Program-made: the position numbers and the translations under genes
Source of the DNA: Candidatus Latescibacterota bacterium
Lineage (GTDB): Bacteria > JAAXHH01
DNA: 64,000 nucleotides
Assembly (NCBI GenBank): GCA_022822725.1
Contig: JAJEAN010000007.1
Span: 562,382 to 626,381, forward strand
Direction of reading: 5' to 3'
Shown: one piece after another, positions 20,974 to 40,217 of the stretch
How the letters are laid out: every line of letters starts with the position of its first letter
Position numbering within the stretch: position 1 is the stretch's first letter
Notes under the pieces: generated by a model
Database searches by the model: none
The model's input: the letters and a program-made list of their open reading frames with translations, nothing else
What the model was told of the DNA's origin: nothing

Positions 20974-22047
20974 TCACGAATACGGGTCTGCGGCGTCGCG
21001 CAACGCGTCTCCGAGGAAGTTGAAGGCGATGACGACGACCAGCACCGGCGCGGCGGGGAATAGAAGCCAGGGATGGTTGAGCAGCACCGTGACGCGCTGC
21101 GCTTCCTCGAGCAGCACGCCCCAGCTGGTCATGGGGGGCCGGATGCCCAGTCCCAGGAAGCTCAGGGCCGTTTCTCCCAGGATCATGCCCGGGATGGCCA
21201 GCGTGGCCACGACGATGATGTGGCTGTAGCAGCCGGGCAGCAGGTGGCGCGAGATGATGTACCAGTGCCCCGCGCCGGCGGAACGTGCCGCCGTCGTGTA
21301 GTCCTGCTCGCGGAAGACGAGGACCTTGCCCCGGACTTCGCGGGCCAGGCCGCCCCAGCTGATGATGGACAGGATGATCGTGATGCCCAGGTAGGTCTCG
21401 ATACTTGTCCATGCGGCGGGCAGCGCCGCCCCGAGCGCCATCCACAGCGGTATCGGCGGAAAGGAGGCCAGGATCTCGACGACACGCTGAAGGGCGTGGT
21501 CGATCCAGCCGCCGAAGTAGCCGGAGAGCGTGCCGAGGACGGATCCGAGGATCAGGCTGAGGAAGACGCCGATGATCCCCACGGTAAGCGAAACGCGGGC
21601 GCCGTGGAAGATGCGCGAGAGCAGGTCGCGGCCCATGCGGTCCGTCCCGAGCAGGTACATGGGACCTTCCGAATGGACCAGCCGGAAGTCGCCGCTTGCG
21701 TCCCTCGACAGGAACCGGACCGGGTAACGCCGGCTCTGGTCCGTCTCGTACGCCAGTTCGAGGGTGACCGGGTTCTGCGTGGAGGTAAGGCCGTAGACGT
21801 AGAACCCCTCTGACCAGTCGAAATGCAGGTCCTGGGGCGGAAGGTACCGGACCTGGATCCGGATTTCGTTATGGTCGTAGGGGGAGAAATACCCGGCGAA
21901 GATCGCCACGAGGTAAAACAGTCCCAGGACGACTCCCGCCGCGATGCCCATCCGGTTCTTCCGGAACCGCCGCCAGATCAGCGCACGGTAGCTGAGATAG
22001 CCCGCATCCTGGACCGTTTCCATCGGGTCGACCGTGGTCGTGGTCAT
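20974..22047 (-). CDS. peptide/nickel ABC transporter permease (DppC/OppC-like)
   Basis: 6-TM permease with EAA-loop region; last gene of minus-strand operon ATPase-ATPase-SBP-permease-permease. Confidence 0.85.
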   Translation of the reverse strand: MTTTTVDPMETVQDAGYLSYRALIWRRFRKNRMGIAAGVVLGLFYLVAIFAGYFSPYDHNEIRIQVRYLPPQDLHFDWSEGFYVYGLTSTQNPVTLELAYETDQSRRYPVRFLSRDASGDFRLVHSEGPMYLLGTDRMGRDLLSRIFHGARVSLTVGIIGVFLSLILGSVLGTLSGYFGGWIDHALQRVVEILASFPPIPLWMALGAALPAAWTSIETYLGITIILSIISWGGLAREVRGKVLVFREQDYTTAARSAGAGHWYIISRHLLPGCYSHIIVVATLAIPGMILGETALSFLGLGIRPPMTSWGVLLEEAQRVTVLLNHPWLLFPAAPVLVVVIAFNFLGDALRDAADPYS

Positions 22048-22101
22048 GGGTTTGCTCCGCGTTCTACTCGAACGCCTCCATCTGCTTTCGAGGCCGCAAG
22101 G

Positions 22102-23088
22102 CTACTCATACCGTATCCTCGGGTCCGCCCAGGCCAGCGCGATGTCGGCCAGGATGTTGCCGATGATCAGGAGCAGGCTGAACATCATCAGCAGGGTACC
22201 GGCCAGGTAGATGTCCTCTGCGACCAGGGCCCGCAGCAGCAACGGCCCCACGGTGGGCAGGCCCAGGACGATCGCCACGATCGTGGCCCCGGAGAGGATG
22301 TTCGGCAGGCTCATGCCCAGGATCGTGATCAGCGGGTTGATGGCGATACGCGCCGCGTGCTTGATGACGACGACGGACTCCTTGAGGCCCTTGGCCCGGG
22401 CCGTCTGTACGAAGGGCTGGCCGAGAACGTCCAGGAGATTGCCGCGCATGATGCGCATCAGGCCGGCCGTCCCGTTGATGCCCACCACGATGACCGGTAT
22501 CCAGAGGTGCTTCAGGAAGTCGACGAGCTTGTCCCACGTCCAGGGCGCGCCTTCGTACTCGCTTGAGAAGAGGCCGAACAGGGGAATCCTGTAGATCTCG
22601 AACACGAAGACCAGGAGGGCCAGGGCCAGGAGGAATCCCGGCATGGACATGCCGATGAAGCTGATGAAAGACAGCACGTTGTCGGACAGGCGGTACTGGT
22701 GGGTAGCCGAATAGATGCCGATGGGGATCGCCACGGCGTAGGTGAAAAGCAGGGCGCCCAGGGCGATGAGCACGGTGAAAGCGAGCCGGTCCCAGATCAG
22801 CGAGTTGACTTCCTGCTCGTATTCGAAGGATTCGCCGAAATCACCCACGACGAACCCCGAGATCCAGTTCACGTACTGCCTCCACATGGGCTGGTCCAGG
22901 CCGTATCGTTCCCGCAGCTCGTCGATGCGGGCGATGGAGCTGCTGTCGCCGTACATCTCCTCCAGTTCCTGGATCTTGCGGTCCAGGAAGTCGCCCTCGG
23001 GCAACTGGATGATGACGAAGCCGATCATGGAAATGGCAAGGAGGGTCGGGATGGCGAGAAGGCAGCGCTGTATGACGTAGGTGATCAT
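22102..23088 (-). CDS. peptide/nickel ABC transporter permease (DppB/OppB-like)
   Basis: MITYVIQRCLLAIPTLLAISMIGFVIIQLPEGDF N-terminus typical of DppB/OppB. Confidence 0.85.
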   Translation of the reverse strand: MITYVIQRCLLAIPTLLAISMIGFVIIQLPEGDFLDRKIQELEEMYGDSSSIARIDELRERYGLDQPMWRQYVNWISGFVVGDFGESFEYEQEVNSLIWDRLAFTVLIALGALLFTYAVAIPIGIYSATHQYRLSDNVLSFISFIGMSMPGFLLALALLVFVFEIYRIPLFGLFSSEYEGAPWTWDKLVDFLKHLWIPVIVVGINGTAGLMRIMRGNLLDVLGQPFVQTARAKGLKESVVVIKHAARIAINPLITILGMSLPNILSGATIVAIVLGLPTVGPLLLRALVAEDIYLAGTLLMMFSLLLIIGNILADIALAWADPRIRYE

Positions 23089-23153
23089 GGTTTAGACAAA
23101 GGCTACACCGCGGTCCGTGAACTGCCCGGTATGCGGTTTAAGTGATCATCCCT

Positions 23154-25232
23154 TCAGTCGATGTAGAACTGCTCGGGGAAACTCGTCGCCGGGCCGGCGA
23201 TGGCCCAGGGGCCGAGAATGCCCGAGTCGGGTACGTTATGGAAGTTGTTCTTCACTATGACGGGCCTGGGCGTGCGGGCCGCGGTGCCCAGGTGGAAGGG
23301 CCCGTGCTCGATATGGATCCGCACGGCGTCCTGTACCAGGCGGTGCCGGGCTTCCAGGTCCTGCTCGTGTTTGATCCGGTCGTAGATGTCGAGCAGCTCG
23401 ATCATGACGCCCGTAGGCGCTTCGCCCCTTTCGCCGCCTGATTCGTACCATTTGCCCACCTGGGGGTGCCAGTACTTTCCGGAAGTCGGAAACACCCAGT
23501 CCGGATAGGTGAACAGGTCCATTTCCGCCTCGCCGTGGAGATGGGCGGTGAACTCGCCGAGGTCGCGGCGCAGCTTGAGTTCGGCTCCGGGCGGCGTGTA
23601 TACGATGACCTCCATCCCCAGTACCCGCCAACCCTCGGCCACGATCAGGGCGACGTCGTTTTCATGGGCGATGTGCGCCGCCGCCGGCGCGTCCAGCACG
23701 AGGGTAAGCCGCTGGCCGTCGGGACGAAGCCGGTATCCCTCGTCGTCGCGGCGGGTGAGCCCCATCTCGTCCAGCAACCGGTTCGCCTGCCGCAGGTCGA
23801 AGTCCGCGTCGGTGGCTTTCCACAGGTCGAATAGTCGTGCACCTTCCGGATCCAGGAAATGCCAGCCCTCCTCGCTCACGGTGGCGGCCTGGGGTTTCGC
23901 AAGGCCCTTGAAGGCGACGGCGTTGCACTTCTCGCGGTCGATGGCCGCGGCGAGCGCCTTGCGGAACCGCTGGTCGCGGATCAGGCCGCGGAGGACCGGG
24001 TCGTTGTCCGACCAGTTCAGGTTGATCGCCGGATCCGATCCGGAAGCGCTCTCCCATAACTTGACGCGGTAATCTCCCTTTTCCCGGCTTTCCATGAACA
24101 GGGAAAAGTCCCGGAGTTCAAGATCGCGGAACTGGCAGTCCACCTCGCCGGCCAGCACCCTGAGGACCCGGATCTGGGCTTCGGGAACCAGCGTGGTGAC
24201 CACCTGGTCGATGTAGGGCAGCTGCCGGCCGTGGTCGTCCACGACGTAGTAATAGGGGTTCCGCTCCAGGATCACCCGGAAGCCGCCCTTTTCGATGCGG
24301 GTGATCGTCCACGGCCACAGGGAGGGCTGTTCGGGATTGCGCTGGGGCAGCCTGTGCTTCTCGTACAGGACGAAATCGTCCACGTCGTCGTTGTGGTCCG
24401 GGTGGAACTGCTTCATATAGTGCTCCGGCACGTTGTACTCTTCGCTCCACCAGAACCCGGTCGCCAGCCACAAGGGCACCAGCCAGTTGGGTCCGGCGAA
24501 CTTCATGACGATGGTGTAGTCGTCCGGGGTCTCGACCTCCATGGGCTTGCCGTCCACGAGGCACCACACGGGCGGCGGGTACCGGTGGCGGTCGTCGAGG
24601 CACAGGTCGTACCAGGCGCGGAAGGATGCCGAGGTATAGGGATGGCCGTCGGACCACCGTACGCCCTCGCGCAGCTTGAGCGTCAGTTCCGTTCCGTCCT
24701 CGTTGAACGTCCACGATTCCGCCAGGCCCGGTTCGAGCCCCGTGGTCCTCCGGTTCCATCGGATCAGCGGGGCGTAGCCGGCGATCATCTTCCAGGTGCC
24801 GAGATCGGTGTTGTTGTGAAACTGGCGCCAGGTCCCGCCGTAGATCCCGGGCCCATCGTATCCCTCGTAGTCGTGTCTGGCCACAAGCGGGTTGGCCGGG
24901 ATCCGCTCCTGCAGGGGCGGCAGGGCGCCCGCCGCCACCCGGGCGGCCAGTTGGGGCGCCTCCTTGCGGGAAAGATCCAGCGAACGGATCGCCGGAGATT
25001 CCGTTGCGGATTCGCCGCCGGCGCAGGCCAGCACACCGACGCAGGCCAGCATACCGACGCAGGCCAGCATACCGCTGCGAGCCAGCATCCCGAAGCGAGC
25101 CAACATCCCGGCGCAGGCCAGCATACCGCCGCGAGCCAGCATATCGCCGCTAGCCAGCATACCGCTGCGAGTCGTGCCGAAGCAAGCCGCAAGGGATACG
25201 CGTGCCGGGGTTTTGGGAAGGTGTCTGTTCAT
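23154..25232 (-). CDS. ABC transporter substrate-binding protein, family 5 (peptide/nickel)
   Basis: The 995-aa ORF 23154..26141 runs into the upstream ATPase in another frame. Plausible start is ATG 25232 (MNRHLPKTPARVSLAA...). Family-5 SBP core follows. N-terminal region contains an 18-bp tandem repeat. Confidence 0.8.
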   Translation of the reverse strand: MNRHLPKTPARVSLAACFGTTRSGMLASGDMLARGGMLACAGMLARFGMLARSGMLACVGMLACVGVLACAGGESATESPAIRSLDLSRKEAPQLAARVAAGALPPLQERIPANPLVARHDYEGYDGPGIYGGTWRQFHNNTDLGTWKMIAGYAPLIRWNRRTTGLEPGLAESWTFNEDGTELTLKLREGVRWSDGHPYTSASFRAWYDLCLDDRHRYPPPVWCLVDGKPMEVETPDDYTIVMKFAGPNWLVPLWLATGFWWSEEYNVPEHYMKQFHPDHNDDVDDFVLYEKHRLPQRNPEQPSLWPWTITRIEKGGFRVILERNPYYYVVDDHGRQLPYIDQVVTTLVPEAQIRVLRVLAGEVDCQFRDLELRDFSLFMESREKGDYRVKLWESASGSDPAINLNWSDNDPVLRGLIRDQRFRKALAAAIDREKCNAVAFKGLAKPQAATVSEEGWHFLDPEGARLFDLWKATDADFDLRQANRLLDEMGLTRRDDEGYRLRPDGQRLTLVLDAPAAAHIAHENDVALIVAEGWRVLGMEVIVYTPPGAELKLRRDLGEFTAHLHGEAEMDLFTYPDWVFPTSGKYWHPQVGKWYESGGERGEAPTGVMIELLDIYDRIKHEQDLEARHRLVQDAVRIHIEHGPFHLGTAARTPRPVIVKNNFHNVPDSGILGPWAIAGPATSFPEQFYID
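25027..25170. repeat. 18-bp tandem repeat, 8 copies (gccagcataccgacgcag-like), in frame inside the signal-peptide region of the SBP gene
   Basis: Direct reading; encodes (G-M-L-A-C/R-A/S)n on the minus strand. Confidence 0.9.
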
Positions 25233-25252
25233 CAGTGCTGTGTCATTCTGGC

Positions 25253-26260
25253 TCAAATGCCCTGGAGAGACAGCGTGTCGCCGTAATGGCACGCCGCCTT
25301 GACGCCTCCGGGATAGGTCTTTAGTTCCGGTTCGGATTCCCGGCACAGGTCCGTGGCGTGCCGGCACCTCGGATGAAAGTGACATCCTTTCGGCGGCGAC
25401 GCGGGATCGGGAACGTCGCCGGTCAGGGCGACGCGCGCCCGTTTCTTCTGTACCGCGGGATCGGCCACCGGGACGGCGGAGATCAAGGCCTCCGTGTAAG
25501 GGTGCAGCGGATGGTGGTAGACCTGTTCGGCAGGACCCGTTTCCACGATCCGGCCGAGGTACATGATCGCTACCCGGTCGCTGATGTGCTGCAGCACGCT
25601 CAGGTCGTGGGTGATGAAGATGTAGGAAAGGCCCATGCGGTCCTTGAGCGAGGCCAGGAGGTTCAGTATCTGGGACTGCACGGATACGTCCAGGGCCGAT
25701 ACGGGCTCGTCCGCGATGATCAATTCGGGCTGGAGGGACAGGGCCCGGGCGATGCCGATGCGCTGGCGCTGGCCTCCGCTGAAGGCGTGGGGATAGCGGC
25801 GCATGTCCCCGGCGTTCAGCCCCACATCGGCCAGTAGGCCGGCCACGCGGTCCTCCAGTTCGGACCCACGGGCCAGTCCGTTCACACGGAGCGGTTCCCC
25901 CACGATGTCGCTCACCGTCATACGGGGGTTGAGGGACGAGTTCGGGTCCTGGAACACCATTTGCATCCGGTGCCGGTAGGGACGCATTTCGCGTCGGTCC
26001 AGGGGACTGAGATTCACTCGCTCCGCGCCGAAGTAGATATCGCCGTCCGTCGGCGGGATCGTCTTCAGCACACACCGTCCCAGCGTCGTCTTGCCGCACC
26101 CGCTTTCGCCCGCCAGGCCGAGGGTCTCCCCGGTGCCGCACTGAAAATCAACGCCGTCCACCGCCCGGACGTCGCCCCGCTTGCGCCGCCAGAGTCCTTT
26201 TCGAATCGGAAAGTACTTCTTCAGATTCCGGACGTCGAGGATGGTTTCCATATCAGGCAT
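25253..26260 (-). CDS. peptide ABC transporter ATP-binding protein (DppF/OppF-like)
   Basis: Walker [10 protein letters not shown], signature LSGGQRQR, Walker B ADEP, C-terminal oligopeptide-ATPase extension. Confidence 0.9.
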
Positions 26261-27257
26261 CCTGCGCGACCTTGTCCGCGTGCCAGCAGCGAACCCGGTG
26301 TCCCGGTTCGGTTTCCTCCACGGGGGGCATCGAGGCGCACTGCTCCGTGGCGTAACGGCATCGAGGCGCGAAAGCGCAGCCTTCCGGCAGGTTGAGCGGA
26401 GACGGTACCGTGCCCGGGATCGTGGACAGCTGCGATGGTTTCTCCCTGCCGATCCGAGGCGCCGATTCGAGCAGTCCCCGGGTATACGGATGGGCCGGCT
26501 GGTAGAAAATCCGTTCAGGCGATCCGGTTTCGACGATCTGCCCCGCGTACATGATCATGATTTCGTCGGCCATGTCGGCGATGACGCCCAGGTCGTGGGT
26601 TATCATCACTATGGCCATGTTCAGGTCTTCTTTCAGCTCCTTGAGCAGATCGAGGATCTGCGCCTGGATGGTCACGTCCAGCGCCGTGGTGGGCTCGTCG
26701 GCGATCAGGAGTTCGGGACCGCAAGACAGGGCCATGGCGATCATGGCGCGTTGCCGCATGCCGCCGGAAAGCTCGTGGGGATACTCGTCCACCCTCTGCA
26801 ACGGGCCGGGGATGCCGACTTCGGACAAGGCCTCCACCGCCCGGTTGCGTGCGGACTTCCGGTCCATGCCATGGTGAAGGCGCAGCGCCTCGCCGATCTG
26901 ACTGCCCACGGTGTATACGGGGTTGAGGGCGGTCATGGGCTCCTGGAAGATCATGGAGATCCTTCGGCCCCGGATTCGGCGCATGGCGTCGCCCCCCGGC
27001 TCGAGGTCGTGTATGTCGACGGTTGCTCCGTCTTCCCTTTCATGGTAGGTGATCTTTCCTTCGATGTACCCCGGTTTCGGGACCAGCCGCATGAGGGAGA
27101 GCCCCATCATGCTCTTGCCGCACCCGCTTTCACCCACCACGCCAAGGGTTCTGCCCCGCCTGATCCGGAAGGAGACGTCCCGCACGGCCCGGACGGGACC
27201 GTCGTCTGTGGGGATCACGGCTGAGAGGTGTGAGACATCAAGGAGAAGGTCTTGCAT
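26253..27257 (-). CDS. peptide ABC transporter ATP-binding protein (DppD/OppD-like)
   Basis: Walker A GESGCGKS, signature LSGGMRQR, Walker B ADEP; 8-bp overlap with downstream ATPase. Confidence 0.9.
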
Positions 27258-28791: not shown

Positions 28792-29556
28792 TCAAATCAG
28801 GTTTCTGTACATTTCTTTCAACCAATCCCTCTCTCGTTTTATGACTTCCAGGTCTCCTCTTCTGTAGAACACACTCCAGGGTTCGACGCCGTTACTCCCC
28901 CAATTTGATATTCTTGCAATCTCCGATTCCTGAAGGTCGACGAGGGCATCCATCACGTTTTTGGGGCTATAATCACCGTAAGCCTCGCATAATACAAAAA
29001 GCCGGTCCCGCAATTCGGGAGGTTCTTCGAACCCACAGTCCCGCCAGAAATCACTTCCACGCAGCGGTACGTGATACCAGGCGATCTGCGCAACATCCAT
29101 GATGGTTTCGCCTGGTTCGGCGAAATCCCAGTCTATGACGCCCGCCAGCATACCATTATGCCAGATGGTGTTCCAGGGACCAAGGTCACCGTGGCGTACT
29201 ATCCATCCGGATCGCCATTTCGAATCCGGGACACACCATACCGTATTCTCGGGAGGCATGTAGCTTTTAACTGCGAGATGGTAGGATTTCAGAAATCCAG
29301 CCAATTGTTCCAGGCCACTGTCGGTCCTGAGTACTACAGGCCATGGTCTCAAGCCCGCTGTGCCTTCGATGTAAGTCAGAATTTCGTGCCCGGCTTCAAC
29401 CCCATGTACCCTTGGGACGCCCTGGAAACCGGTATTTTCAAGAAACCTGAGCAGGTCGTGTACAGCGTGTGTCCACCGATTGACGGGACGGTGGACGACA
29501 TCCCCGATGCGTTTAACGGTGTGCAAAGCACCGCACTGGCGGTCCTTATTTGCCAT
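28792..29556 (-). CDS. aminoglycoside phosphotransferase (APH)/phosphotransferase-enzyme family kinase
   Basis: HGDLGPWN (Brenner HGDxxxxN) and IDWDF (DFG-equivalent) motifs. Confidence 0.8.
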   Translation of the reverse strand: MANKDRQCGALHTVKRIGDVVHRPVNRWTHAVHDLLRFLENTGFQGVPRVHGVEAGHEILTYIEGTAGLRPWPVVLRTDSGLEQLAGFLKSYHLAVKSYMPPENTVWCVPDSKWRSGWIVRHGDLGPWNTIWHNGMLAGVIDWDFAEPGETIMDVAQIAWYHVPLRGSDFWRDCGFEEPPELRDRLFVLCEAYGDYSPKNVMDALVDLQESEIARISNWGSNGVEPWSVFYRRGDLEVIKRERDWLKEMYRNLI

Positions 29557-29663
29557 TATGAGATCCCCAATACAAAAACGGGAGCGTGTGATCCCTCACG
29601 CGCCCCCGTTCAGCCGTCTTCCGCCAGCCATGTAACGCCCGTCTCAACGCCCTTTCGGCATTC

Positions 29664-32003
29664 CTAGGATTTTGTCGACCGCACCGGAGCGGCGGGCTCC
29701 GTTTCCGGTTCCGGTGTTTCCACCTTGTCCTGCGCATGGTCGTCCGCCGTCGCCTGGTCCCTACCGTCCACGGTTTCCTGCGCCTGTTCGTTTGGAGTTA
29801 CCGCCCCGTTTCCGTCCACGGGCTTCGTTTCCGATACGGCCGTTTCAGCGGCCGCTTCTCCGGCCGCTTCCTTCGCTCCGGTTTCGCCATCCTCGGCCGT
29901 TTCCTGTGACTCGGCGGTCTCATGTGGCTCGGTGGTCTCCTGCGACCCGGCCGCTTCCTGCGACCCGGTGGTCTCCTGCGACTCGGTGGTCTCCTGCGCC
30001 CCGGCCGCTTCCTGCGACTCGGAGGACACCGTCGACTCAGCGGTCTTCTTCGACCCGCCGGTATCACGCGCTTCGGGAGGTAGCGGGGGCAGGGTCTTGC
30101 CTTCGATGAGCATGGCCACCTCGTCCCGCGAGAGCGAATCCCGTTCCAGGAGGGCCTTGGCCACGACGTGAAGCTGGGGTTCGTAATCCTTGAGCAGTTT
30201 CTCCACGCGTTCTCCTGCCTCGGTCACGAAACGCTGGATCTCCTGGTCGATGCGATGGGCGGTGGTCTCGCTGTAGTTTGGTTGGTGGGCAATGTCACGG
30301 CCGAGGAAGACCTCGTGCTCCTTCTCGCCTAGCGCCGTGGCCCCGAGCTCCTCGCTCATCCCCCAGTCGCATACCATGTGGCGGCTGATGCGGGTGACCT
30401 GTTCGATGTCGCTTTGCGCGCCGGAGGTCACTTCGCCGAAGACGATCTGCTCGGCCGCACGGCCGCCCAGGGCCGCGGCCATCGTACCCAGACAGTACGA
30501 GCGGGACTGGAGGTAGCGTTCCTCCGGCAGGGGTATGGTCACGCCAAGGCCCCTGCCCTGGGGCAGGATCGTCACCTTGTGCAGGGGGTCGATTTCGGGG
30601 ATGAGTTCGAAGGCGAGGGCGTGACCGGCCTCGTGATAGGCCACGATCTCCCGCTCCTTGTCGCTGATCACGAGCTGGCGCTTCGATCCCATCATGATCT
30701 TTTCTTTTGCTTCCTCGAAGTCATCGTTGGTTACGGAAGCGCGATCGTAACGCGCCGCGATGAGCGCCGCCTCGTTCACCATGTTGGCCAGGTCCGCGCC
30801 TACCATGCCGGGCACGCCCTTGGCGAGCACATCCAGCTTGACCGAGTCGTCGAGGGGGATTTTGCGACTCTTTACGTGGATCTCCAGGATCTTCTCCCGT
30901 CCCACCACGTCCGGACGGTCGACGACGATGTGCCGGTCGAAGCGGCCGGGTCGGAGCAGTGCGGGATCGAGCACGTCCGGACGGTTCGTCGCGCCGATCA
31001 CGATGATAGAGTCCGTTTTCTCGAAACCGTCCAGCCCCACAAGCAACTGGTTCAGGGTCTGTTCCCGCTCGTCGTGCCCGCCACCGAGTCCGGCGCCCCG
31101 GTGTCGTCCGATGGCGTCGATCTCATCGATGAAGATGATACACGGTGCGTTCTGGCGGGCCTGGTCGAAGAGGTCCCGCACGCGGGAAGCGCCCACGCCG
31201 ACGAACATCTCCACGAAGTCCGATCCGCTCATGCTGAAGAAGGGCACGCCCGCCTCGCCGGCCACGGCCTTGGCGAGCAGCGTCTTGCCCGTGCCCGGCG
31301 GGCCCAGCAGCAGGGCGCCTTTCGGTATCCGGCCACCCAGGGCGTGGAACTTGTCCGGGTTCTTCAGGAACTCCACGATCTCCTGCAGGTCGCGCTTGGC
31401 CTCGAGCACCCCAGCCACGTCGGCGAAGGTGATGGAAGGCCGGTCTTCCACGATCATCTTGGCACGGCTCTTGCCGAAGGAGAACATGCCGCGCTGGCCC
31501 GACTGCATCTGGCGCAGGATGAAGATCCAGAACCCGATCAACAGCAGCCAGGGCAGGGCGGCGATGAGGTAGCCTACCCAGTTGGTGGCCTCCGGTTCGG
31601 CCGTAACCATGACGTTTTTCGCCATGAGATCGGCCACCAGCTCCGGGTCGTCGAAGGGGATGTATACCTTGAATTCGCGCAGGCTCTGGTTCGCGCCTTC
31701 GACCACGGTCGACGAGTCCTGGCGCAGTGTGCCCGTGATCAGCTTCTCGGTGATGGTGACCTGCTCGATGTTGTCGGCTTCGAGAAACTGCTGGAACTGC
31801 GTATACGACACGGTTACCGCGTTATCGCCCCGCCTGGGCAGGAACTGCGCGGCCATCAGGAAGAACAGGAAGAGTACGAGCCAGATCAGGATCGAGCGGT
31901 TCTTCCTCGACTTGTCGGGCGGTGGCTGCCGGTCGTTCCTGGGATGGGGCTGTCGCTGGTCTGGGGGCGGCTGCGGATTCCGGTCCTGCGGTGGTTGGGA
32001 CAT
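29664..32003 (-). CDS. ftsH: ATP-dependent zinc metalloprotease FtsH with Pro/Gln-rich N-terminal extension and ~150-aa acidic low-complexity C-terminal tail
   Basis: AAA Walker [12 protein letters not shown] region, HEAGHAL zinc site. ORF-track start 32063 overlaps the sigma gene; internal ATG 32003 (MSQPPQD) avoids overlap. C-terminal tail rich in SQETT/ESQE repeats. Confidence 0.9.
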
Positions 32004-32047
32004 GTCTTGTTGAAGACCTCGGTTCGTTCGGGGGTGGGTCGGCGTCT

Positions 32048-32671
32048 TTAGAAACCGGTGCAAATCGGCGCGGCGACGATCAGGTGGCGGAGATCAAGGC
32101 CGCCTTCGGTCCGGTACGGCGACCAGTCCCTGAACATGCTCCGCAACTTGCTTCGCGCTTCCGAAAGCCTGCGTTTCACGGTACCCACGGGAACGTTCAT
32201 CCTCGTGCTGACCTCATCACAGGAGTAACCGGAGAAATAGTACATGGCGACGGTCCGGCCGAGTGCGTGCGACAGCGTCGCTACGGCATTCCGCACGCTG
32301 CGGCGCTTTGCCCGGTCCAGGTGCACATCGCCCGGCCAGGCGCTTCCGTCGTCTTCCTCCTGCCGGACCTCCGACCAGGCCGTCTCCCGGTGTCTGCGGT
32401 CACCCACGTGGGCGAGGCACCGGTTACGCGCGATGGCGCGCAGCCACTGCGGAAACCTTTCCAGGTCGCGCAGGGACGACAGCCGCTGGTACACGGAAAG
32501 CCAGATATCCTGTACGATATCCTGCTTGTCCTGGCGGTTCCTGACCATGGATCCGACGATACGCCTGATCTCGCGGTCATGCCGCTGCACCAGCTTTTCG
32601 AAATCGTCCGGACAGCCGTTCAACACGCTTTCGATGATGAGTCCGTCCGCCGTGTGCGCCATTTCGTACAT
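32048..32671 (-). CDS. RNA polymerase sigma-70 factor, ECF subfamily
   Basis: Region 2 (DIVQDIWLSVYQRL) and region 4 HTH (YSCDEVSTRMNVPVGTVKRRL). Confidence 0.85.
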   Translation of the reverse strand: MYEMAHTADGLIIESVLNGCPDDFEKLVQRHDREIRRIVGSMVRNRQDKQDIVQDIWLSVYQRLSSLRDLERFPQWLRAIARNRCLAHVGDRRHRETAWSEVRQEEDDGSAWPGDVHLDRAKRRSVRNAVATLSHALGRTVAMYYFSGYSCDEVSTRMNVPVGTVKRRLSEARSKLRSMFRDWSPYRTEGGLDLRHLIVAAPICTGF

Positions 32672-32831
32672 CCTGCGTCAGGGGTGTTCGGCTACGCGTG
32701 AAGTGCGGAAGGCACCGTCTACTGCGGGAGGCACCGTCTACATATACTAAGAGGCCCGAAAACGAAAATCGGTTCGTTTTTTTTCGTATCGTTCCGACCC
32801 ACCGTTAATATACCGGATCAACGCGTCCTCG

Positions 32832-34175
32832 TCAAGCGGCCCCGGCGGCCTGTTCGCTGCCGGACACCACGCGGATTTCGCGGGTCAGACCGATCAATCC
32901 GACGAGGTTGGGAAACATCATGCAGGCGACCATGATATCTCCGAGATCCCAGATCATCCGGGCTTCGTATACGGCCCCGAAGAAGGCGGCCGCGCACCAG
33001 GTGATCCGGATACCGAGCACCACGCCCCGGGAGTCCGTCACGAACCGCAGGCCCTGCTCGGCATAGTAGGACCAGGTGACCATGGTCGTGAACCCGAACA
33101 TCAGGGAGCAGAGCGCGACGATGGCTCCGCCGAAAGGGATGGTGGTATTGAGCGCGGAAGCCACGAGGGCGGTGCTGATCTCGCCGTTGTGCCAGACGCC
33201 GGCGATGACCACGGTTACCGCGGTCATGGAACAGACGACGATCGTGTCGATGAAGACACCGATCATGGAGATATACCCCTGCCGCACCGGGTTGTTCGTC
33301 TGCGCCGCGCTGTGGGCGATCCCCGCGCTTCCGAGGCCGGCCTCGCTGGAGATGACGCCGCGCCGGATACCGTACTGGATCGTCCGGGCTACCGTGACGC
33401 CGGCGAAACCGCCGATGGCCGCGACCGGCGTGAAGGCGCTTTCCACGATGATCCAGAGCGTTGCCGGCAGCGCGCTGAAGTGGGTGAATACGACGTAGAC
33501 CACGCTGGCGGCGTAGACGAGCACCATCGTGGGCACGAGCCTTTCCGCGACCAGGCCGATGCGCTTGATCCCGCCGATGATGACGACGGCCAGGATGCCG
33601 GTCAGCAGGGCGCCGGTAATCCACTTGGCCACGTGAAACTGGGAGTCCATGACCAGGGCGATGGAGTTCGCCTGGCTGATGTTCCCGCCGCCGAGGCCGC
33701 CCAGCGTGGCACAGAGGGCGAAGATCGCGCCGATGGTGGGCAGGTTCAGCCCGTCCTTCAGATAGGACATGGGGCCGCCGAGCATGAGGCCGTCCCGCGT
33801 CTTTCCGCGGTACCGCAGGGCCAGCACGGTTTCCGCGTACTTCGTCGCCATGCCCAGGGGCGCCATGGCCGCCATCCAGAAGGCCGCGCCCGGACCGCCC
33901 ACCGCGATGGCCGTCGCCACGCCCGCTATGTTGCCGTTGCCGATGGTGGCCGCCATGGCCGTGGTCAGCGCCTGGAAGGGCGAGATGTCGCCCGATTCCC
34001 GATCGCCCTTGTCCCTGCGCAGGGCGCCCCGCATGACCAGGCCGACGGCCGTACCGAACTTCCGGAACTGTACCCCCCTGCTGGCCACGGTGAGCATGAA
34101 ACCCAGGACGGCGAGCACGCCGATCGTCCAGGGTCCCCACATGAAATCGGATATCGCGCGCAGGACGGCATCCAT
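32832..34175 (-). CDS. alanine/glycine:cation symporter (AGCS) family sodium:alanine symporter
   Basis: 447 aa polytopic protein with AGCS-typical N-terminal region (GPWTIGVLAVLGFMLT...FQALTTAMAATIGNGNIAGVATAI). Confidence 0.9.
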   Translation of the reverse strand: MDAVLRAISDFMWGPWTIGVLAVLGFMLTVASRGVQFRKFGTAVGLVMRGALRRDKGDRESGDISPFQALTTAMAATIGNGNIAGVATAIAVGGPGAAFWMAAMAPLGMATKYAETVLALRYRGKTRDGLMLGGPMSYLKDGLNLPTIGAIFALCATLGGLGGGNISQANSIALVMDSQFHVAKWITGALLTGILAVVIIGGIKRIGLVAERLVPTMVLVYAASVVYVVFTHFSALPATLWIIVESAFTPVAAIGGFAGVTVARTIQYGIRRGVISSEAGLGSAGIAHSAAQTNNPVRQGYISMIGVFIDTIVVCSMTAVTVVIAGVWHNGEISTALVASALNTTIPFGGAIVALCSLMFGFTTMVTWSYYAEQGLRFVTDSRGVVLGIRITWCAAAFFGAVYEARMIWDLGDIMVACMMFPNLVGLIGLTREIRVVSGSEQAAGAA

Positions 34176-34460: not shown

Positions 34461-35603
34461 ATGACCGACCGCGTCTACGGCGTGCTGCTGGTCAGTTTCA
34501 GCAGGCACAGCCACCAGCGCAGTTTCGTCCCCGCTTTCGTGGACCATCCCCGGATCCGCATCGTGGGCGTGGCGGACGACGCGGACATCGACCCCTATCT
34601 CGAGCCGTTGAACCGGACCTGGGCCGATCGTCTGGGCGTTCCGTATCTGGAAGGGATCGAGGCCGCCGTGCAGCAGGATGACGTGGATGTCGTAAGCATC
34701 GGCCACGAGATCGAGCGGAGGGCGGATATCGCCAGACTGGCGGCGCGCGCGGGCAAGCACCTGTGGATCGACAAGTACATCGGCGCCAACATGCGGGAAT
34801 GCCGCGACGTGGTCGACACCGTCGAAGGATCAGGCGTCACATCTATCCTTCCCAGTTACGTTTACAACGATTTCGTCAATCAGAGCAAAAGGATGATCGA
34901 CACGGGATTGCTGGGCGAATTGACGGCGATGCACGTCGACATCCTCTTCGGCAAGGGGATCCCCCGGCCCATTTCGAATGCACAGCGAAAACCCGGTTTC
35001 CTGCCGGCGGGCAGGTGGAAGTTCCCGGACATCAAACGCGAGTTGCTGACGGTGGGCGCCTATGGCGTTGCACTGGTTCAGCAGTGTTTCGATCCTGTCG
35101 TCGAGGTATACGGCCAGGCCGGCGCCTACTTCTTCCCGGAACATGCCGCCCATGGCGCGGACGACTTCGGGACGCTGACCCTCGTGGACCGGTCCGGACG
35201 GGTGGCCACCCTGTCCGCCGGGCGCAACGGCATCGCCTCCCATGGCGCCGGAGGACCGAACCTGGCCTACCTGTTCGGCACGAAGGGCACGGGACGGATC
35301 GACGGAAAACGCCCCGGGTTCGATACCCACCTGAGAAACCGTATCGTGGACGGTGACTACAGCGTCGACGATGACGATCCCATGCAGTGGCACAGCGGCC
35401 CGCCCACCTTGCTGACCTCCACGGGAACCGAGTTCACCCGTGCCGCACTGGATGACCTCGTTCACGCGCTGGACTCCGGCGCGCAACCGCGCTTCACCGT
35501 GCGGGACGCCCGGGACCACATGGAAGTGATGCTCGCGGGCTATGAATCCGTCGTGCGGAACCGGCCGGTGCGTCTTCCCTTGAGCAGCGGGGAGGCGGCG
35601 TGA
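34461..35603 (+). CDS. Gfo/Idh/MocA-like oxidoreductase (atypical, lacks canonical GxGxxG)
   Basis: Overall Gfo/Idh/MocA-like N-terminal organisation (IRIVGVADD..., EKY-like region) but N-terminal motif degenerate. Confidence 0.5.
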   Translation: MTDRVYGVLLVSFSRHSHQRSFVPAFVDHPRIRIVGVADDADIDPYLEPLNRTWADRLGVPYLEGIEAAVQQDDVDVVSIGHEIERRADIARLAARAGKHLWIDKYIGANMRECRDVVDTVEGSGVTSILPSYVYNDFVNQSKRMIDTGLLGELTAMHVDILFGKGIPRPISNAQRKPGFLPAGRWKFPDIKRELLTVGAYGVALVQQCFDPVVEVYGQAGAYFFPEHAAHGADDFGTLTLVDRSGRVATLSAGRNGIASHGAGGPNLAYLFGTKGTGRIDGKRPGFDTHLRNRIVDGDYSVDDDDPMQWHSGPPTLLTSTGTEFTRAALDDLVHALDSGAQPRFTVRDARDHMEVMLAGYESVVRNRPVRLPLSSGEAA

Positions 35604-36493
35604 AAGGTATAGACGGACTGGTCATTGGTAGTCCGCGGGATTTTGAATTCTTCCGGGAGGACCTGGAGGCGCGGGACGGCGTGGTGTTCGCCCGGTCGAC
35701 CGGCGGTTCCAGCGACGCCGCACAAGACGGACAAAAGGGCACGGATCAAGGCTTCGTGACGCTGCGAAACGCCCTCGACGCGTACCTGCCCCGGCGGGCC
35801 CTGTTTCTTTCACCCTACCGGGGCATGGCCGCGGACGCGGCACACCTGGTTGAAAATGGTGCCGACGTGCGCACGGCCGGTCCCATGCCCGTCCGGACCC
35901 GCAATCTGCGTATACCCATAGCGGATTTGCACCGGTCCGATTCCGGATTCCGGGCGATGCTTGAAGCGAGCCGCCATGCCGATTTCGGGGACCCGGTGTA
36001 CCTTCGGCTGATCTCATCGCCGCATGGCGGGAAGTGGCAGAAGCGGTGGTGCGTCTTCCAGTCGTGCCGCAAGGCCGCGGCGCTGCTGGATTCTCCCCTG
36101 CGCCGAGTGTACGTAGCCGCGACGAGGGCCGCACGTAGTCTGCACGTGAGCATTACGTTGAAGACGCAACGCAATGCCACCGGTCATTTGCTGGTGGCGC
36201 CGAGGGGGTCCCGGCTGCAGGACGACCTGTTCCTGGTGGGAACGGGCGGTACGCTGGCGGACGATCCCCTGCTGAATCAACCGGGTGTGTATGGGAAGTC
36301 GGATAATAGCATGTTGACGCGTTACAGCATGTTGACGCGGCCTGCCGGGCGGAGACTGGCCTGCCTGTGGGGGAATGAGGCCCGGGTCACCCTGTCCGCC
36401 GCCGAACGGCGTTTCTACGATGACCTGTTCCAGGCGATCGACGACTCGTCGCGGTCGCGGAGCGGTATCTGCCTGGATTTCCCCACGGCCTGA
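35600..36493 (+). CDS. hypothetical protein, translationally coupled (GTGA overlap) to the upstream oxidoreductase-like gene
   Basis: 297-aa ORF, GTG start, no recognisable family; contains an internal 16-bp direct repeat (gcatgttgacgcg x2). Confidence 0.35.
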   Translation: MKGIDGLVIGSPRDFEFFREDLEARDGVVFARSTGGSSDAAQDGQKGTDQGFVTLRNALDAYLPRRALFLSPYRGMAADAAHLVENGADVRTAGPMPVRTRNLRIPIADLHRSDSGFRAMLEASRHADFGDPVYLRLISSPHGGKWQKRWCVFQSCRKAAALLDSPLRRVYVAATRAARSLHVSITLKTQRNATGHLLVAPRGSRLQDDLFLVGTGGTLADDPLLNQPGVYGKSDNSMLTRYSMLTRPAGRRLACLWGNEARVTLSAAERRFYDDLFQAIDDSSRSRSGICLDFPTA

Positions 36494-36626: not shown

Positions 36627-37610
36627 ATGACCGTCATCTCCCCATCGGCCGCCGTCGTGGCGCCGGAAGAAGCCGGCCCGGTTTCTCTGCCCTTCCTGCG
36701 GCGCATGCTGAAGCACCGCATGGTCTGCGCCGGCGGCGGCCTGGTCCTGTTCCTGGCGTCCCTGGCCCTGGCCGCCCCGGTCCTGACCGGCCTGGGTTAT
36801 CTGCAGGACCCCATGCTGCAGCTGGCCGACGGCCTGGACGCCGACGGTCTGCCTATCCCGCCCGGCGAACGGTTTCTCCTCGGCACGGACCATCTCGGAC
36901 GGGATATGCTGGCCCGTCTGGTGCACGGCACCCGCATCTCCCTGCTCGTTGGCGTCGTGGCCATGCTCATCGCTGTTTGCGTCGGGGTGACCGTGGGCAT
37001 GCTCGCGGGATACCACGGCGGATGGGTGAACGCCCTCCTCATGCGCGGAACCGACGTCATGCTGGCCATACCCGGGCTGTTGCTGGCCATCGCCTTTGCC
37101 GGACTGATGGACGGACGCGTGATCCAGATCCGCTTCGAGCCCCTGGACTGGCACGTACTGAACATCACGCTGAAACGCGGACTGGTCAGCGTGTTCCTCG
37201 TCATCGGGCTCGTAAGCTGGACCTGGATCGCACGGACCATTCGAAGCCAGGTACTGATCCTGAAGACCCGGGAGTTCGTCACGTCATCCCGGGCCATCGG
37301 CTGTTCGGATTTCCGCATCATGGTCCGGCATCTGCTACCCAACGTCCTGCCCCTGATCATCGTGCTCGGGTCCCTCGCCACGGCGAACACGGTGCTGCTC
37401 GACGCCGGCCTGAGTTACCTCGGGGTCGGCGTACCGCCCCCTGCGCCGTCGTGGGGTACCATGATCGCCGAGGGACAGCCGTACTTCATCGTCGCTCCGC
37501 ACCTCACCGTGGCTCCGGGCCTGTTCATTACCGCGGCCGTCGTGGGATTCAACCTGCTCGGCCAGGGTCTCCAGGAGGTACTGGATCCCTACGTGAAGGA
37601 GGGGAAGTGA
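36627..37610 (+). CDS. peptide/nickel ABC transporter permease (DppC/OppC-like)
   Basis: Typical DppC N-terminal and EAA-loop regions. Confidence 0.85.
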   Translation: MTVISPSAAVVAPEEAGPVSLPFLRRMLKHRMVCAGGGLVLFLASLALAAPVLTGLGYLQDPMLQLADGLDADGLPIPPGERFLLGTDHLGRDMLARLVHGTRISLLVGVVAMLIAVCVGVTVGMLAGYHGGWVNALLMRGTDVMLAIPGLLLAIAFAGLMDGRVIQIRFEPLDWHVLNITLKRGLVSVFLVIGLVSWTWIARTIRSQVLILKTREFVTSSRAIGCSDFRIMVRHLLPNVLPLIIVLGSLATANTVLLDAGLSYLGVGVPPPAPSWGTMIAEGQPYFIVAPHLTVAPGLFITAAVVGFNLLGQGLQEVLDPYVKEGK

Positions 37611-37612
37611 CG

Positions 37613-39265
37613 ATGAACGGCACACCCGCGCGGAAATCTGTGGTTGAGGCCGCCCCTGCGCTGCTGTCGCTGGCAGCGGGGTGCCTTACGGTGCTGATCT
37701 TCGCGGTTTCCTGTTCCGGCGACGCCCTTCCCGGGCGGCTGCACCCCGAGGAGAACGTCCTGCGTATCGCCGTGCCTTCGGACCCGCGATCCCTCGATCC
37801 GGCCATCGCCTACGACGTGGTGACCTGGCCGCTGGTGCGCGCCCTGTTCCACGGCCTGATCGATTATGACGACGACCTGAACCTGGTCCCCTGGCACGCG
37901 CGCTCGTGGACCGTCTCCGGAGATGGCCGGACCATTACCTTCAAGTTGCGACGGGACATCCGGTTCTCGAACGGGCGGCCGATCACATCGGAAGATTTCG
38001 CCTGGTCCCTCGAACGGATACTGGATCCGGCCACCAGGTCCCCGGGGCAGGGATTCTATCGGAACATCGCCGGTGCCCGTGCGTTCCAGGACGGTTCGGC
38101 GGACCGGGTCGCGGGCCTGCGCACACCCGACCCCGAGACCCTGGTGATCGAGCTGGCCCATCCCGATCTGCCCTTCCTGTACTGCATGGCCATGCCCTTC
38201 GCGTACGCCGTTCCACGGGAGGAGGTCGAGCGGCGCGGGGAGACCTTCGGGCGGCATCCCGTCGGCGCGGGGCCCTTTGTGCTGGCGGACTGGCAGCGCG
38301 GAACGCGCATGCGGCTCGCGAAGAATCCGTCCTACTACCGGGCGGACGAGATCCGGCTGGAAGCCATCGAACTGATGGTCGGCGGGGACGAGACCCTGCA
38401 CATGATGATGTTCGAACGGGGCGAGCTGGACATTGCGAGCGTCACTTCGACGGGGATTCCGGACGCGGACTTCATCAGGGTAATGAAAGACCCCGTCCTC
38501 CGCGCTCGCGTCGCCCATCAACCGCTGAACGCCATTCAGTACCTTTCCATGAACACCGAGATGCCGCCTTTCGACCATGTGGACGTGCGCAGGGCGGTCA
38601 ACCACGCCATCGACCGGAAGCGGATCGTGAGCCTGATCAGCGACCGGGGCATCCTGGCCCGGGGCGTGCTGCCGCCCGGCATGCCGGGATTCAACGAGGA
38701 TCTCGAAGGGTACGACCACGACCCGGAAAAGGCCCGCCGGCTGCTTGCGGAGGCCGGGTACCCCGAGGGGTTCACCACCGAACTCATGATCACGGCCCAG
38801 AGCGGAATCGATACCAAGATCGGGCAGGCGGTGCAGCAGGACCTCGCGGCGGTCGGCATCACCGTGGAAATCAGGCCGGTCACCGGTTCGACGCGGATCG
38901 AAGCGACGGGCCGGCGCGGCGCGGTACCCTTCTCCACCTTCGGGTGGTACCAGGACTATCCGGATCCGAGCAATTTCCTCGACGTACTGTTGAACGGCAA
39001 CCGGATTACCGAGGTGAACAGCACCAACGTGGCCTTCTATGACAATGAATCGGTGAACGCGCTGCTGAACGAAGCGTCCACCAGCACGGACCAGGCCCAC
39101 CGCCTGGCCCTGTACCAGGAAGCGGAGCGGTTGATCGTGGAGGACGCGCCCTGGGTGTTCCTGTACTATCCGCAAATGTACCTGCTCCGGCAACCGTGGC
39201 TCAAGGGGCTCAGGCTCAATCCGGTCTGGCCCATTCGCTACGAGTTGATGTGGATCGAACCATGA
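37613..39265 (+). CDS. ABC transporter substrate-binding lipoprotein, family 5
   Basis: ATG at 37613 right after the permease stop; lipobox LSLAAGC; family-5 SBP core. The 762-aa ORF 36977..39265 is an artefactual frame merge. Confidence 0.85.
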   Translation: MNGTPARKSVVEAAPALLSLAAGCLTVLIFAVSCSGDALPGRLHPEENVLRIAVPSDPRSLDPAIAYDVVTWPLVRALFHGLIDYDDDLNLVPWHARSWTVSGDGRTITFKLRRDIRFSNGRPITSEDFAWSLERILDPATRSPGQGFYRNIAGARAFQDGSADRVAGLRTPDPETLVIELAHPDLPFLYCMAMPFAYAVPREEVERRGETFGRHPVGAGPFVLADWQRGTRMRLAKNPSYYRADEIRLEAIELMVGGDETLHMMMFERGELDIASVTSTGIPDADFIRVMKDPVLRARVAHQPLNAIQYLSMNTEMPPFDHVDVRRAVNHAIDRKRIVSLISDRGILARGVLPPGMPGFNEDLEGYDHDPEKARRLLAEAGYPEGFTTELMITAQSGIDTKIGQAVQQDLAAVGITVEIRPVTGSTRIEATGRRGAVPFSTFGWYQDYPDPSNFLDVLLNGNRITEVNSTNVAFYDNESVNALLNEASTSTDQAHRLALYQEAERLIVEDAPWVFLYYPQMYLLRQPWLKGLRLNPVWPIRYELMWIEP

Positions 39266-39296
39266 ATCGCGACCGAGACCATAAAAGGACCTCGCC

Positions 39297-40217
39297 ATGT
39301 TGAGCAGGATCCTGCGCCGCCTGGGATGGGCGGCCGTGATACTGTGGGGGACCACGGTAATCACGTTTCTCATCGTGCACGCGGTTCCGGCCGATCCGGT
39401 CCGGGTATACGCGGGGGCGAACGCGGATGCGGAGACGATCGAGCGGATCCGCGCGGAAATGGGCTTCGATGATCCACTCATCGTGCAGTACGGCCGCTAC
39501 ATCGGCAACCTGCTGCGCGGCGACCTCGGCACGTCCCTTGTGACGGGAGAACGGGTGCTCGACGCCCTCCTGGCGCGGTTCCCGGTAACTCTCTCCCTGG
39601 CACTGACGGCCGTATGCCTGTGGATGCTGATGAGCGTGCCGCTGGGTGTCCTCACGGCGAAGTACCGCGGCCGGGCCATCGACCGGGCGGTGCTCATCGT
39701 ATCCCTGGTCGCCATTTCCCTTCCGGTCTTCTGGCTGGCCCGCATGCTGCAGTACTACCTGGCCTACCGGACCGGCCTGTTTCCGGTGGCCGGATGGACG
39801 GGCTGGACCCACATCATCCTGCCGGCGGCGACGCTGGCCCTGGTGATTACGGGGTACTACGCCCGGCTCGTCCACACGAACATGGTGGAGGTGCTGAACG
39901 CCGATTACGTGCGCGTGGCCCGCGCCAAGGGGATCCCCGAATACGTCGTCCTGTTCAAGCACGGGCTGCGGAACGCCGTCATTCCCGTCATTACCGTCCT
40001 CGGCCTCGACATGGCCGCGCTCATGGGCGGCGTGGTGTTTACCGAGAACGTCTTCGCCCTGCCCGGCCTGGGCGTCCTGGCCCTGCAGTCGGTCTTCAAC
40101 CTTGACGTGCCCATGATCATGGGTGTCGTGCTCTTCTCGGCCGCGATGGTGGTCTGTGCCAACATCGTGGTGGATTTCGTGTATATGTGGATCGATCCCA
40201 GGGTCGAGGGGATGTAG
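39297..40217 (+). CDS. peptide/nickel ABC transporter permease (DppB/OppB-like)
   Basis: MLSRILRRLGWAAVILWGTTVITFLIVHAVPADP N-terminus typical. Confidence 0.85.
   Translation: MLSRILRRLGWAAVILWGTTVITFLIVHAVPADPVRVYAGANADAETIERIRAEMGFDDPLIVQYGRYIGNLLRGDLGTSLVTGERVLDALLARFPVTLSLALTAVCLWMLMSVPLGVLTAKYRGRAIDRAVLIVSLVAISLPVFWLARMLQYYLAYRTGLFPVAGWTGWTHIILPAATLALVITGYYARLVHTNMVEVLNADYVRVARAKGIPEYVVLFKHGLRNAVIPVITVLGLDMAALMGGVVFTENVFALPGLGVLALQSVFNLDVPMIMGVVLFSAAMVVCANIVVDFVYMWIDPRVEGM

Follow-up and report, generated by a model that had tools for sequence, protein, structure and literature searches.

An extracytoplasmic function sigma factor gene followed by ftsH rather than by an anti-sigma gene in a lineage of uncultured Gemmatimonadota

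Described systems and how the locus compares

Sigma factors of the extracytoplasmic function (ECF) type are grouped and understood mostly by way of their conserved gene neighbors, and in canonical ECF operons a negative regulator is the product of the conserved gene that comes right after the sigma gene (the +1 gene). The locus described here has ftsH at +1 and has no anti-sigma gene. It lies on the minus strand of a 64,000-nucleotide stretch of contig JAJEAN010000007.1 (positions 562,382 to 626,381), which we refer to as the window, and all coordinates below are those of the window unless a relative is named. The explanation that we favor, at a probability of roughly 60%, is an autoregulated sigma-ftsH operon, in which the sigma factor would recognize the promoter upstream and drive itself as well as ftsH, making FtsH a hard-wired output. 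The ECF sigma gene and then ftsH would be co-transcribed from an ECF-type promoter, and active sigma factor would transcribe its own operon (positive autoregulation) and raise FtsH. FtsH would then be the built-in output of a response to envelope or proteostasis stress, the presumed inducing signal, and a housekeeping promoter in the window’s subclade would supply basal FtsH.

The sigma32 (RpoH)-FtsH loop of Escherichia coli is similar in that ftsH is among the outputs of an alternative sigma factor, and there membrane-bound FtsH in turn degrades sigma32 in a negative feedback (PMC3866087; PMC6629908). The two differ because sigma32 is a group 3 sigma factor that is not genetically linked to ftsH, whereas we have a group 4 (ECF) sigma factor in a predicted ftsH operon. 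Degradation of sigma32 also needs chaperones and membrane targeting mediated by the signal recognition particle.

With RpoE-RseA, AlgU-MucA and SigW-RsiW the locus shares a sigmaE/AlgU-like core and a membrane protein encoded at +1, and as in canonical ECF operons there is a predicted autoregulatory promoter, which carries an A-tract together with an AAC-containing -35 element and a -10 element of the TCT type. What sets the window apart from these operons is that its +1 gene encodes FtsH, with no detectable anti-sigma domain.

The orphan ECF sigmaAntA (ECF282) also has no anti-sigma factor, and there a protease, ClpXP, is implicated along with a C-terminal signal on the sigma factor (PMC8999054; PMC7142297). 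In the family described here, the sigma tails end in TGF, TTL, KIS or LDH and not in Ala-Ala, and the neighboring protease is FtsH, not ClpXP. The window’s sigma factor also appears, from its promoter region, to be autoregulated, which sigmaAntA is not known to be. We did not find the combination that marks ECF282, namely an Ala-Ala ClpXP degron, lack of autoregulation and an actinobacterial biosynthetic cluster. Proteolytic control has also been proposed for ECF54 and ECF115, which have neighboring peptidase or Clp genes (PMC8999054).

As in ECF238 (CorE2/SigZ) and ECF29, a conserved extension, here of ~15–37 aa, comes after sigma4 and there is no anti-sigma gene; in those two groups short tails (~20–30 aa) are proposed as cis regulators (PMC7826278). 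The window’s sigma factor differs in having neither a Cys-rich motif nor an RCE/D motif, and it scored 55–61 bits with the SigZ models against cutoffs of 169–212 (60 bits versus 212 in one case). The several conserved tail cysteines of ECF238 are absent.

Groups without anti-sigma factors are cataloged in the reclassification (PMC7826278) and in a review of non-canonical ECFs (PMC8999054), and FtsH goes unmentioned in the main text of both. Phrase searches of the literature for an ECF degraded by FtsH and for a sigma gene upstream of ftsH returned nothing relevant. With FtsH as its only conserved neighbor, a predicted autoregulatory promoter and no anti-sigma gene, the locus would be a further non-canonical ECF architecture. 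It might be a compact two-gene circuit for matching FtsH capacity to membrane-protein damage outside the Proteobacteria.

The gene pair, its conservation and its promoter

The sigma gene (32048..32662, minus strand) encodes 204 aa and matches Pfam and NCBIfam models. Pfam finds Sigma70_r2 (E = 3e-12) together with r4_2 (E = 9e-9) and finds no r3, and the protein scored 80 bits with the ECF superfamily model TIGR02937, for which the cutoff is 42.9. Having sigma2 and sigma4 only, in a protein within the expected ~170–220 aa, it belongs to the ECF sigma factors (group 4). Sigma2 occupies residues 1–90 and sigma4 residues 112–178, with a linker at 91–111, and an AlphaFold model (mean predicted local distance difference test score, pLDDT, of 72.5) has two helical domains, sigma2 and sigma4, both modeled confidently, and a disordered linker. 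In a profile comparison the closest solved relatives were ECFs of the AlgU/sigmaE type. The protein fell below the cutoff of every NCBIfam ECF subfamily model, and an exact look-up of its sequence found none on record.

The ftsH gene (29664..32003, minus strand) encodes 779 aa. The protein scored 797 bits with TIGR01241 (cutoff 600), carries the Pfam domains FtsH_ext, AAA, AAA_lid_3 and Peptidase_M41, and aligns to residues 3–610 of E. coli FtsH (E = 4e-189). In the translation the Walker A/B motifs, second region of homology, pore loop and HEAGH zinc site all read as intact, and we found the features that define an FtsH, which are two transmembrane (TM) helices flanking a periplasmic domain, the AAA module and the M41 HEXXH site. 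Orthologues across the family are 69–78% identical and above the equivalog cutoff, and these identities and scores are as would be expected of a working protease. The original prediction, which was made from the letters of the window, had called an ECF sigma gene followed by an FtsH gene on the same strand, and the domain and equivalog matches bear this out and establish both gene identities directly.

For the sigma gene, the start is probably the ATG at 32662 because relatives (201–204 aa) begin with MAHTAD and because an AGGA stands 8 nt before that ATG; an alternative ATG at 32671 would give 207 aa. We were able to read 12 FtsH N-termini in the family, and ten of them start at a conserved ATG giving MSQPP while the other two have the homologous MNRAP or MKQAP. 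The conserved ATG is position 32003 of the window, so the two genes do not overlap and there is a 44-nt gap between them (32004..32047, minus strand) with a Shine-Dalgarno-like GAGG, no open reading frame (ORF) and no terminator. It had been claimed that a long ftsH start makes the genes overlap by 16 bp. The start in question, a TTG at 32063, is rejected since the orthologues use the conserved ATG, and the overlap goes with it.

The remark that no anti-sigma gene adjoins the pair was correct, and is a direct observation: the neighbors are a Na:alanine symporter gene upstream and an APH-family kinase gene downstream. A small anti-sigma ORF at 32003–32063 had been named as something that would refute the reading of a pair without an anti-sigma gene. 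We looked for one in the spacer and there is none in the window, where 44 nt is too short, and none in the relatives. No minus-strand terminator was predicted between the sigma gene and ftsH, so a transcript from the ECF-type promoter would be expected to enter ftsH. Folding of the spacer is poorer than that of shuffled controls (z = +1.9). On the 3' side of ftsH there is a predicted terminator-like hairpin followed by a T-run (29584..29601, minus strand).

The comparison of the neighborhood in relatives, which had been put forward as a check, covers the family loci L001–L006, L088–L089, L091–L092 and L173–L177 together with the window (reported total, 17). The ftsH gene is directly downstream of the sigma gene in 17/17 of these loci, with spacers of 14–78 nt; an anti-sigma gene at +1, which is typical and not obligatory for ECFs, is found in none of them because the +1 gene encodes FtsH in all 17. 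Identity to the window’s sigma factor is 71–90% in L001–L006, 47–56% in L088, L089, L091 and L092, and 41–48% in L173–L177, which were recovered by profile search. Synteny extends over the entire 16-kb block in L089 (55% sigma identity), and by itself the pairing there would be weak evidence. In L173–L177 the upstream flank has GT2, epimerase and DegT genes instead of the symporter gene, and the downstream flank has a methyltransferase or ABC-F ATPase gene instead of the aminotransferase gene. Despite the changed flanks these loci keep the sigma-ftsH pair, with spacers of 18–78 nt. The comparison thus upholds the adjacency, which is seen directly to be independent of the flanks.

We used two sets of control loci. 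In 80 generic ECF loci from a metagenome scan with sigma alignment (22–33% identity), there was no FtsH gene within 5 kb (0/80). In 80 ftsH loci from many phyla, six other Gemmatimonadota included (48–60% identity, among the matches listed, none of them from the window’s own clade), there was no sigma gene directly upstream (0/80), and an ECF gene occurred somewhere within 6 kb in three. The sigma-ftsH pairing is more than an accident of a single genome. Since it survives divergence and the change of flanks, and since the spacer has no anti-sigma ORF, a functional link between the sigma factor and FtsH is likely.

All carriers of the pair belong to one lineage of uncultured Gemmatimonadota. 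One sigma homologue (MCY4546145.1) is from a metagenome-assembled genome that NCBI places in the Gemmatimonadota, and several others are on closed or near-closed contigs of 3.7–3.9 Mb. An exhaustive profile search of 1.84 billion cluster representatives found only three family clusters at 50% identity (236–344 bits, with the next match at 172 bits), so the sigma family is small and lineage-restricted.

Upstream of the sigma gene there is a predicted ECF (sigmaE-like) promoter (32740..32786, minus strand), found by motif and by position weight matrix. Its parts are an A-tract of eight A (32777–32784), a -35 element CGAAC (32772–32776), a gap of exactly 19 nt and a -10 element TCTTA (32748–32752). 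The motif precedes the sigma gene with the identical 19-nt spacing in each of the 11 non-redundant family loci, and in every family member whose upstream sequence is available; the consensus is an A-tract, CCGAAC, 19 nt and TCT(T/A)(A/T) at 60–100 nt upstream of the sigma start, and this conservation is directly observed. The sequence between the elements and the GC content vary widely across the 11 loci. The exact pattern occurs once per locus in 10 family loci and in 0/162 other loci. Across the 64-kb window there is a single exact match, and the position weight matrix likewise has a single match, with a score of 51 where the rest are ≤14.

An AAC -35 element at a fixed distance from the -10 element is what one looks for in the autoregulatory promoter of an ECF, and by computation it is here. 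In E. coli the -35 element of sigmaE promoters is GGAACTT, and these promoters have UP elements made of A-tracts (PMC3326320). We read the window’s ECF-type promoter as probably the sigma factor’s own because of this E. coli sigmaE-like architecture and because the closest solved relatives are of the sigmaE/AlgU type. There is also a sigma70-type promoter (TTGACG, 17 nt, TATATT; 32807..32835, minus strand) that overlaps the stop codon of the upstream symporter gene and agrees with the consensus at 10/12 positions. Promoter prediction gave it as the only promoter-like site in 29300–33000, and both of its hexamers are conserved in the window’s subclade (L001, L004, L088, L089) and not in more distant loci. 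No thermometer-like RNA element was detected, and neither the sigma 5' leader (z = +1.0) nor the spacer is unusually structured.

We also considered that the sigma gene and ftsH may be merely neighbors, with ftsH expressed from a housekeeping promoter or by read-through and the sigma factor held in check by an anti-sigma factor encoded at an unlinked site or by the short extension at its own C-terminus. The strong sigma70-type promoter before the operon in the window’s subclade would fit this, as would the restriction of the family to one clade and the full synteny of the 16-kb block of L089. However, the pair outlasts the replacement of both flanks with its spacer at 18–78 nt, and a transcript from the ECF promoter would continue into ftsH unless it were terminated, and no terminator is predicted. 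The sigma tail also has at most one Cys, unlike the Cys-rich extension of ECF238. We think it unlikely that the two genes are only neighbors.

Candidate brakes on the sigma factor

There are several points that weigh against the autoregulated operon. All family members are from one clade, and shared ancestry contributes to the conservation of the pair. Both co-transcription and promoter use are things that we infer. No further ECF-motif promoters were found in the 64-kb window, where no regulon beyond ftsH is visible. Lastly, positive autoregulation that nothing inhibits would be a runaway process, and there must be a negative regulator somewhere. The explanation is incomplete in this respect; the brake could be FtsH itself, an anti-sigma factor encoded at an unlinked site or the sigma tail.

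It is possible that the co-transcribed FtsH degrades the sigma factor directly, perhaps by way of the disordered C-terminal tail, and replaces the anti-sigma factor; we put the odds of this well below even. An autoregulated sigma factor requires a brake, and the place that a negative regulator holds in canonical ECF operons is held here by FtsH. The sigma factor carries a family-specific disordered tail, and two of its three subtypes end hydrophobically. FtsH recognizes C-terminal, N-terminal or internal degrons, as in ssrA-tagged proteins, LpxC and lambda CII (PMC9601784), and its degradation of sigma32 at the membrane belongs to a negative feedback loop that members of the regulon of sigma32 carry out (PMC3866087). 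For an orphan ECF under direct proteolysis there is a precedent in sigmaAntA and ClpXP (PMC7142297; PMC8999054). In such a circuit, again a tentative proposal made by analogy, damaged membrane proteins would compete for FtsH, the sigma factor would be stabilized and more FtsH would be made, which would be self-correcting in the manner of sigma32.

There are reasons to doubt that FtsH has this role. The tails of subtype C are only ~15 aa and end in ..W.LDH, which means that the family as a whole lacks a shared non-polar degron at the C-terminus. We found no report of an ECF as an FtsH substrate in the literature searched, and the sigma tail may be what is left of a C-terminal extension that was lost. 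The data point more directly in the reverse direction, to a sigma factor that probably drives ftsH. Control by FtsH is compatible with the autoregulated operon and would extend it. If it is true, this would be the first ECF under direct FtsH control and a hard-wired FtsH homeostat; the logic of sigma32 and FtsH would extend to group 4 sigma factors, and there would be a protease-gated orthogonal ECF switch for synthetic biology. If FtsH does not degrade the sigma factor, the locus is a modest, lineage-restricted operon variant.

The sigma tail itself (residues 178–204, ending ..FRDWSPYRTEGGLDLRHLIVAAPICTGF; 32051..32131, minus strand) is conserved across the family, and generic ECFs lack it. 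Residues 181–204 have a pLDDT of <50 in the AlphaFold model and are predicted to be disordered, so in the model the tail has the appearance of a disordered linear motif and not of a domain that is docked. There are three subtypes of tail: A, which includes the window and ends ..LDLRHLIVAAPICTGF; B, which is longer and hydrophobic; and C, which is the short ..GS.W.LDH. A non-polar C-terminus is thus not family-wide. Subtype A has one cysteine and subtype C has none. In subtype A the cysteine is usually four residues from the C-terminus (CTGF, CSGF, CTTL; 32051–32062 in the window), which resembles a CaaX box. There is an exception (P0026), the arrangement is absent from subtypes B and C, and we believe that it is probably a coincidence.

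The nearest ECFs outside the family (≤172 bits; P0103–P0113) are 357–1416 aa long and are fusions whose C-terminal part carries bifunctional-nuclease domains (PF02577), accompanied in some by Big_2 or TPR domains. The segment LDLRHLIVAAP of the window’s sigma tail aligns positionally with the linker after sigma4 in these fused ECFs (LPxxF[RQ]K[VI]V[VI]). This alignment weakly suggests that the tail may be the stub of a lost C-terminal extension.

FtsH has an N-terminal cytoplasmic extension before the first TM helix (31893..32003, minus strand), which was recognized by its composition and by comparison with 11 family orthologues. The original prediction described it as ~60 aa and rich in Pro, Gln and Arg. 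The composition was right, as the extension has 11 Pro, 9 Gln/Asn and 8 Lys/Arg and no Cys, but the length is 37 aa by alignment to E. coli FtsH, residue 3 of which aligns to residue 36 of the window’s FtsH. In the 11 orthologues the extension is 26–37 aa with 4–11 prolines and starts with MSQPP in nine. Apart from the MSQPP start and a basic juxtamembrane patch, the sequence varies, as does the length. In two relatives (L088 840-929, L089 8656-8802) the annotated FtsH starts too late (MIWLV.., MAAQL..), which cuts off the extension, and the conserved upstream ATG restores it; automated annotation will under-report such extensions. A homologue search with the N-terminal 198 aa of FtsH returned mostly fragments.

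It had been suggested that this extension could substitute for an anti-sigma domain, that is, act as a membrane-tethered domain that sequesters the sigma factor. It is cytoplasmic, it adjoins the membrane, it is present in 12/12 family FtsH proteins with readable N-termini, and within the data that we examined the MSQPP type occurs only together with the sigma factor. However, that co-occurrence is confounded by phylogeny. A class I anti-sigma domain is helical and cytoplasmic, stands before a TM helix, is ~80–90 aa long and often has the motif HxxxCxxC. A variable extension of 26–37 aa with 4–11 prolines and no conserved Cys/His motif does not have the makeup of such a domain (ASD/ZAS) and is unable to fold into the kind of helical bundle seen in known anti-sigma domains, and there was no Pfam anti-sigma match in it.

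Similar extensions also occur on FtsH proteins that have no sigma neighbor, an outcome that the original prediction itself had listed as counting against the idea. In the 80 background loci, basic or Pro-rich N-terminal extensions of at least 17 aa are common. All six of the other Gemmatimonadota have extensions of 17–21 aa with no sigma neighbor, and extensions of 27–58 aa or more, again with no sigma neighbor, are found on FtsH of Latescibacterota, Ignavibacteria, Kapaibacteria, Calditrichota, Krumholzibacteriia and Bacteroidota. We consider a role as an anti-sigma domain to be very improbable.

The C-terminal tail of FtsH (29667..30104, minus strand), identified by composition and orthologue comparison, is acidic and Ser/Thr-rich. 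It measures 146 aa after the conserved core, close to the ~150 aa first reported, and has 34 D/E and 33 S/T. Within it is an 18-nt (hexapeptide) tandem repeat of 9.5 copies (29892-30062, minus strand). Background FtsH tails have a median of 36 aa and reach at least 100 aa in 2/79 loci. In the family, the tail is 94–146 aa in the window’s subclade versus 40–51 aa in distant members that still carry the sigma factor. Because only the window’s subclade has the long tail, the tail can have no share in the coupling and is an unrelated low-complexity expansion driven by the repeat.

FtsH proteins of Desulfovibrio, Latescibacterota and Ignavibacteria are similar in having basic, Pro-rich N-terminal extensions (27–58 aa) and C-terminal tails of up to 119–125 aa. 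They differ from the window’s FtsH in having no upstream sigma gene. The window combines both extensions, and its tail, unlike theirs, is expanded by an 18-nt tandem repeat. The FtsH extensions are probably disordered low-complexity appendages that are not needed to explain the coupling, and the N-terminal extension and the acidic tail turn out to be incidental features.

Surrounding genes and minor features

The pair in the window is flanked by the Na:alanine symporter gene upstream and by genes for an APH-family phosphotransferase and an aminotransferase downstream. The APH-family gene (28792-29556, minus strand), between ftsH and the aminotransferase gene, is also present in L004–L006 and absent from L001–L003 and L089. 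Its presence in only some relatives makes it a variable insertion within a block that is otherwise syntenic. Further out, two separate Opp/Dpp-type peptide ABC-transporter clusters (20974-27257 and 36627-40217, with SBP_bac_5, BPD_transp_1 and oligo_HPY ATPases) flank the pair. The neighborhood in the window is geared to peptide and amino-acid uptake.

The distant members have a different setting, with genes for a DegT aminotransferase, an NAD-dependent epimerase and a GT2 glycosyltransferase directly upstream of the pair (L173 4279-7906; L175 2913-6481; L176 3-2906; L177 1-3339). The presence of such envelope sugar-modification genes upstream hints at an envelope-related role.

No other sigma or FtsH genes were found within the 64-kb window, and no Rfam families or tRNAs. 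The sigma 5' leader contains a tandem duplication of two 19-nt copies (32704..32741, minus strand; Tandem Repeats Finder, 94% matches). The copies, TAGACGGTGCCTCCCGCAG and TAGACGGTGCCTTCCGCAC, are perfect-frame, and they occur in the window only and are absent from the relatives. A 297-aa ORF (35600-36493, plus strand) with no Pfam match lies beside a GFO/IDH/MocA oxidoreductase gene, and it does so in all syntenic relatives as well, where it is 291–293 aa. A DUF2961 gene is located at 40988-42076.

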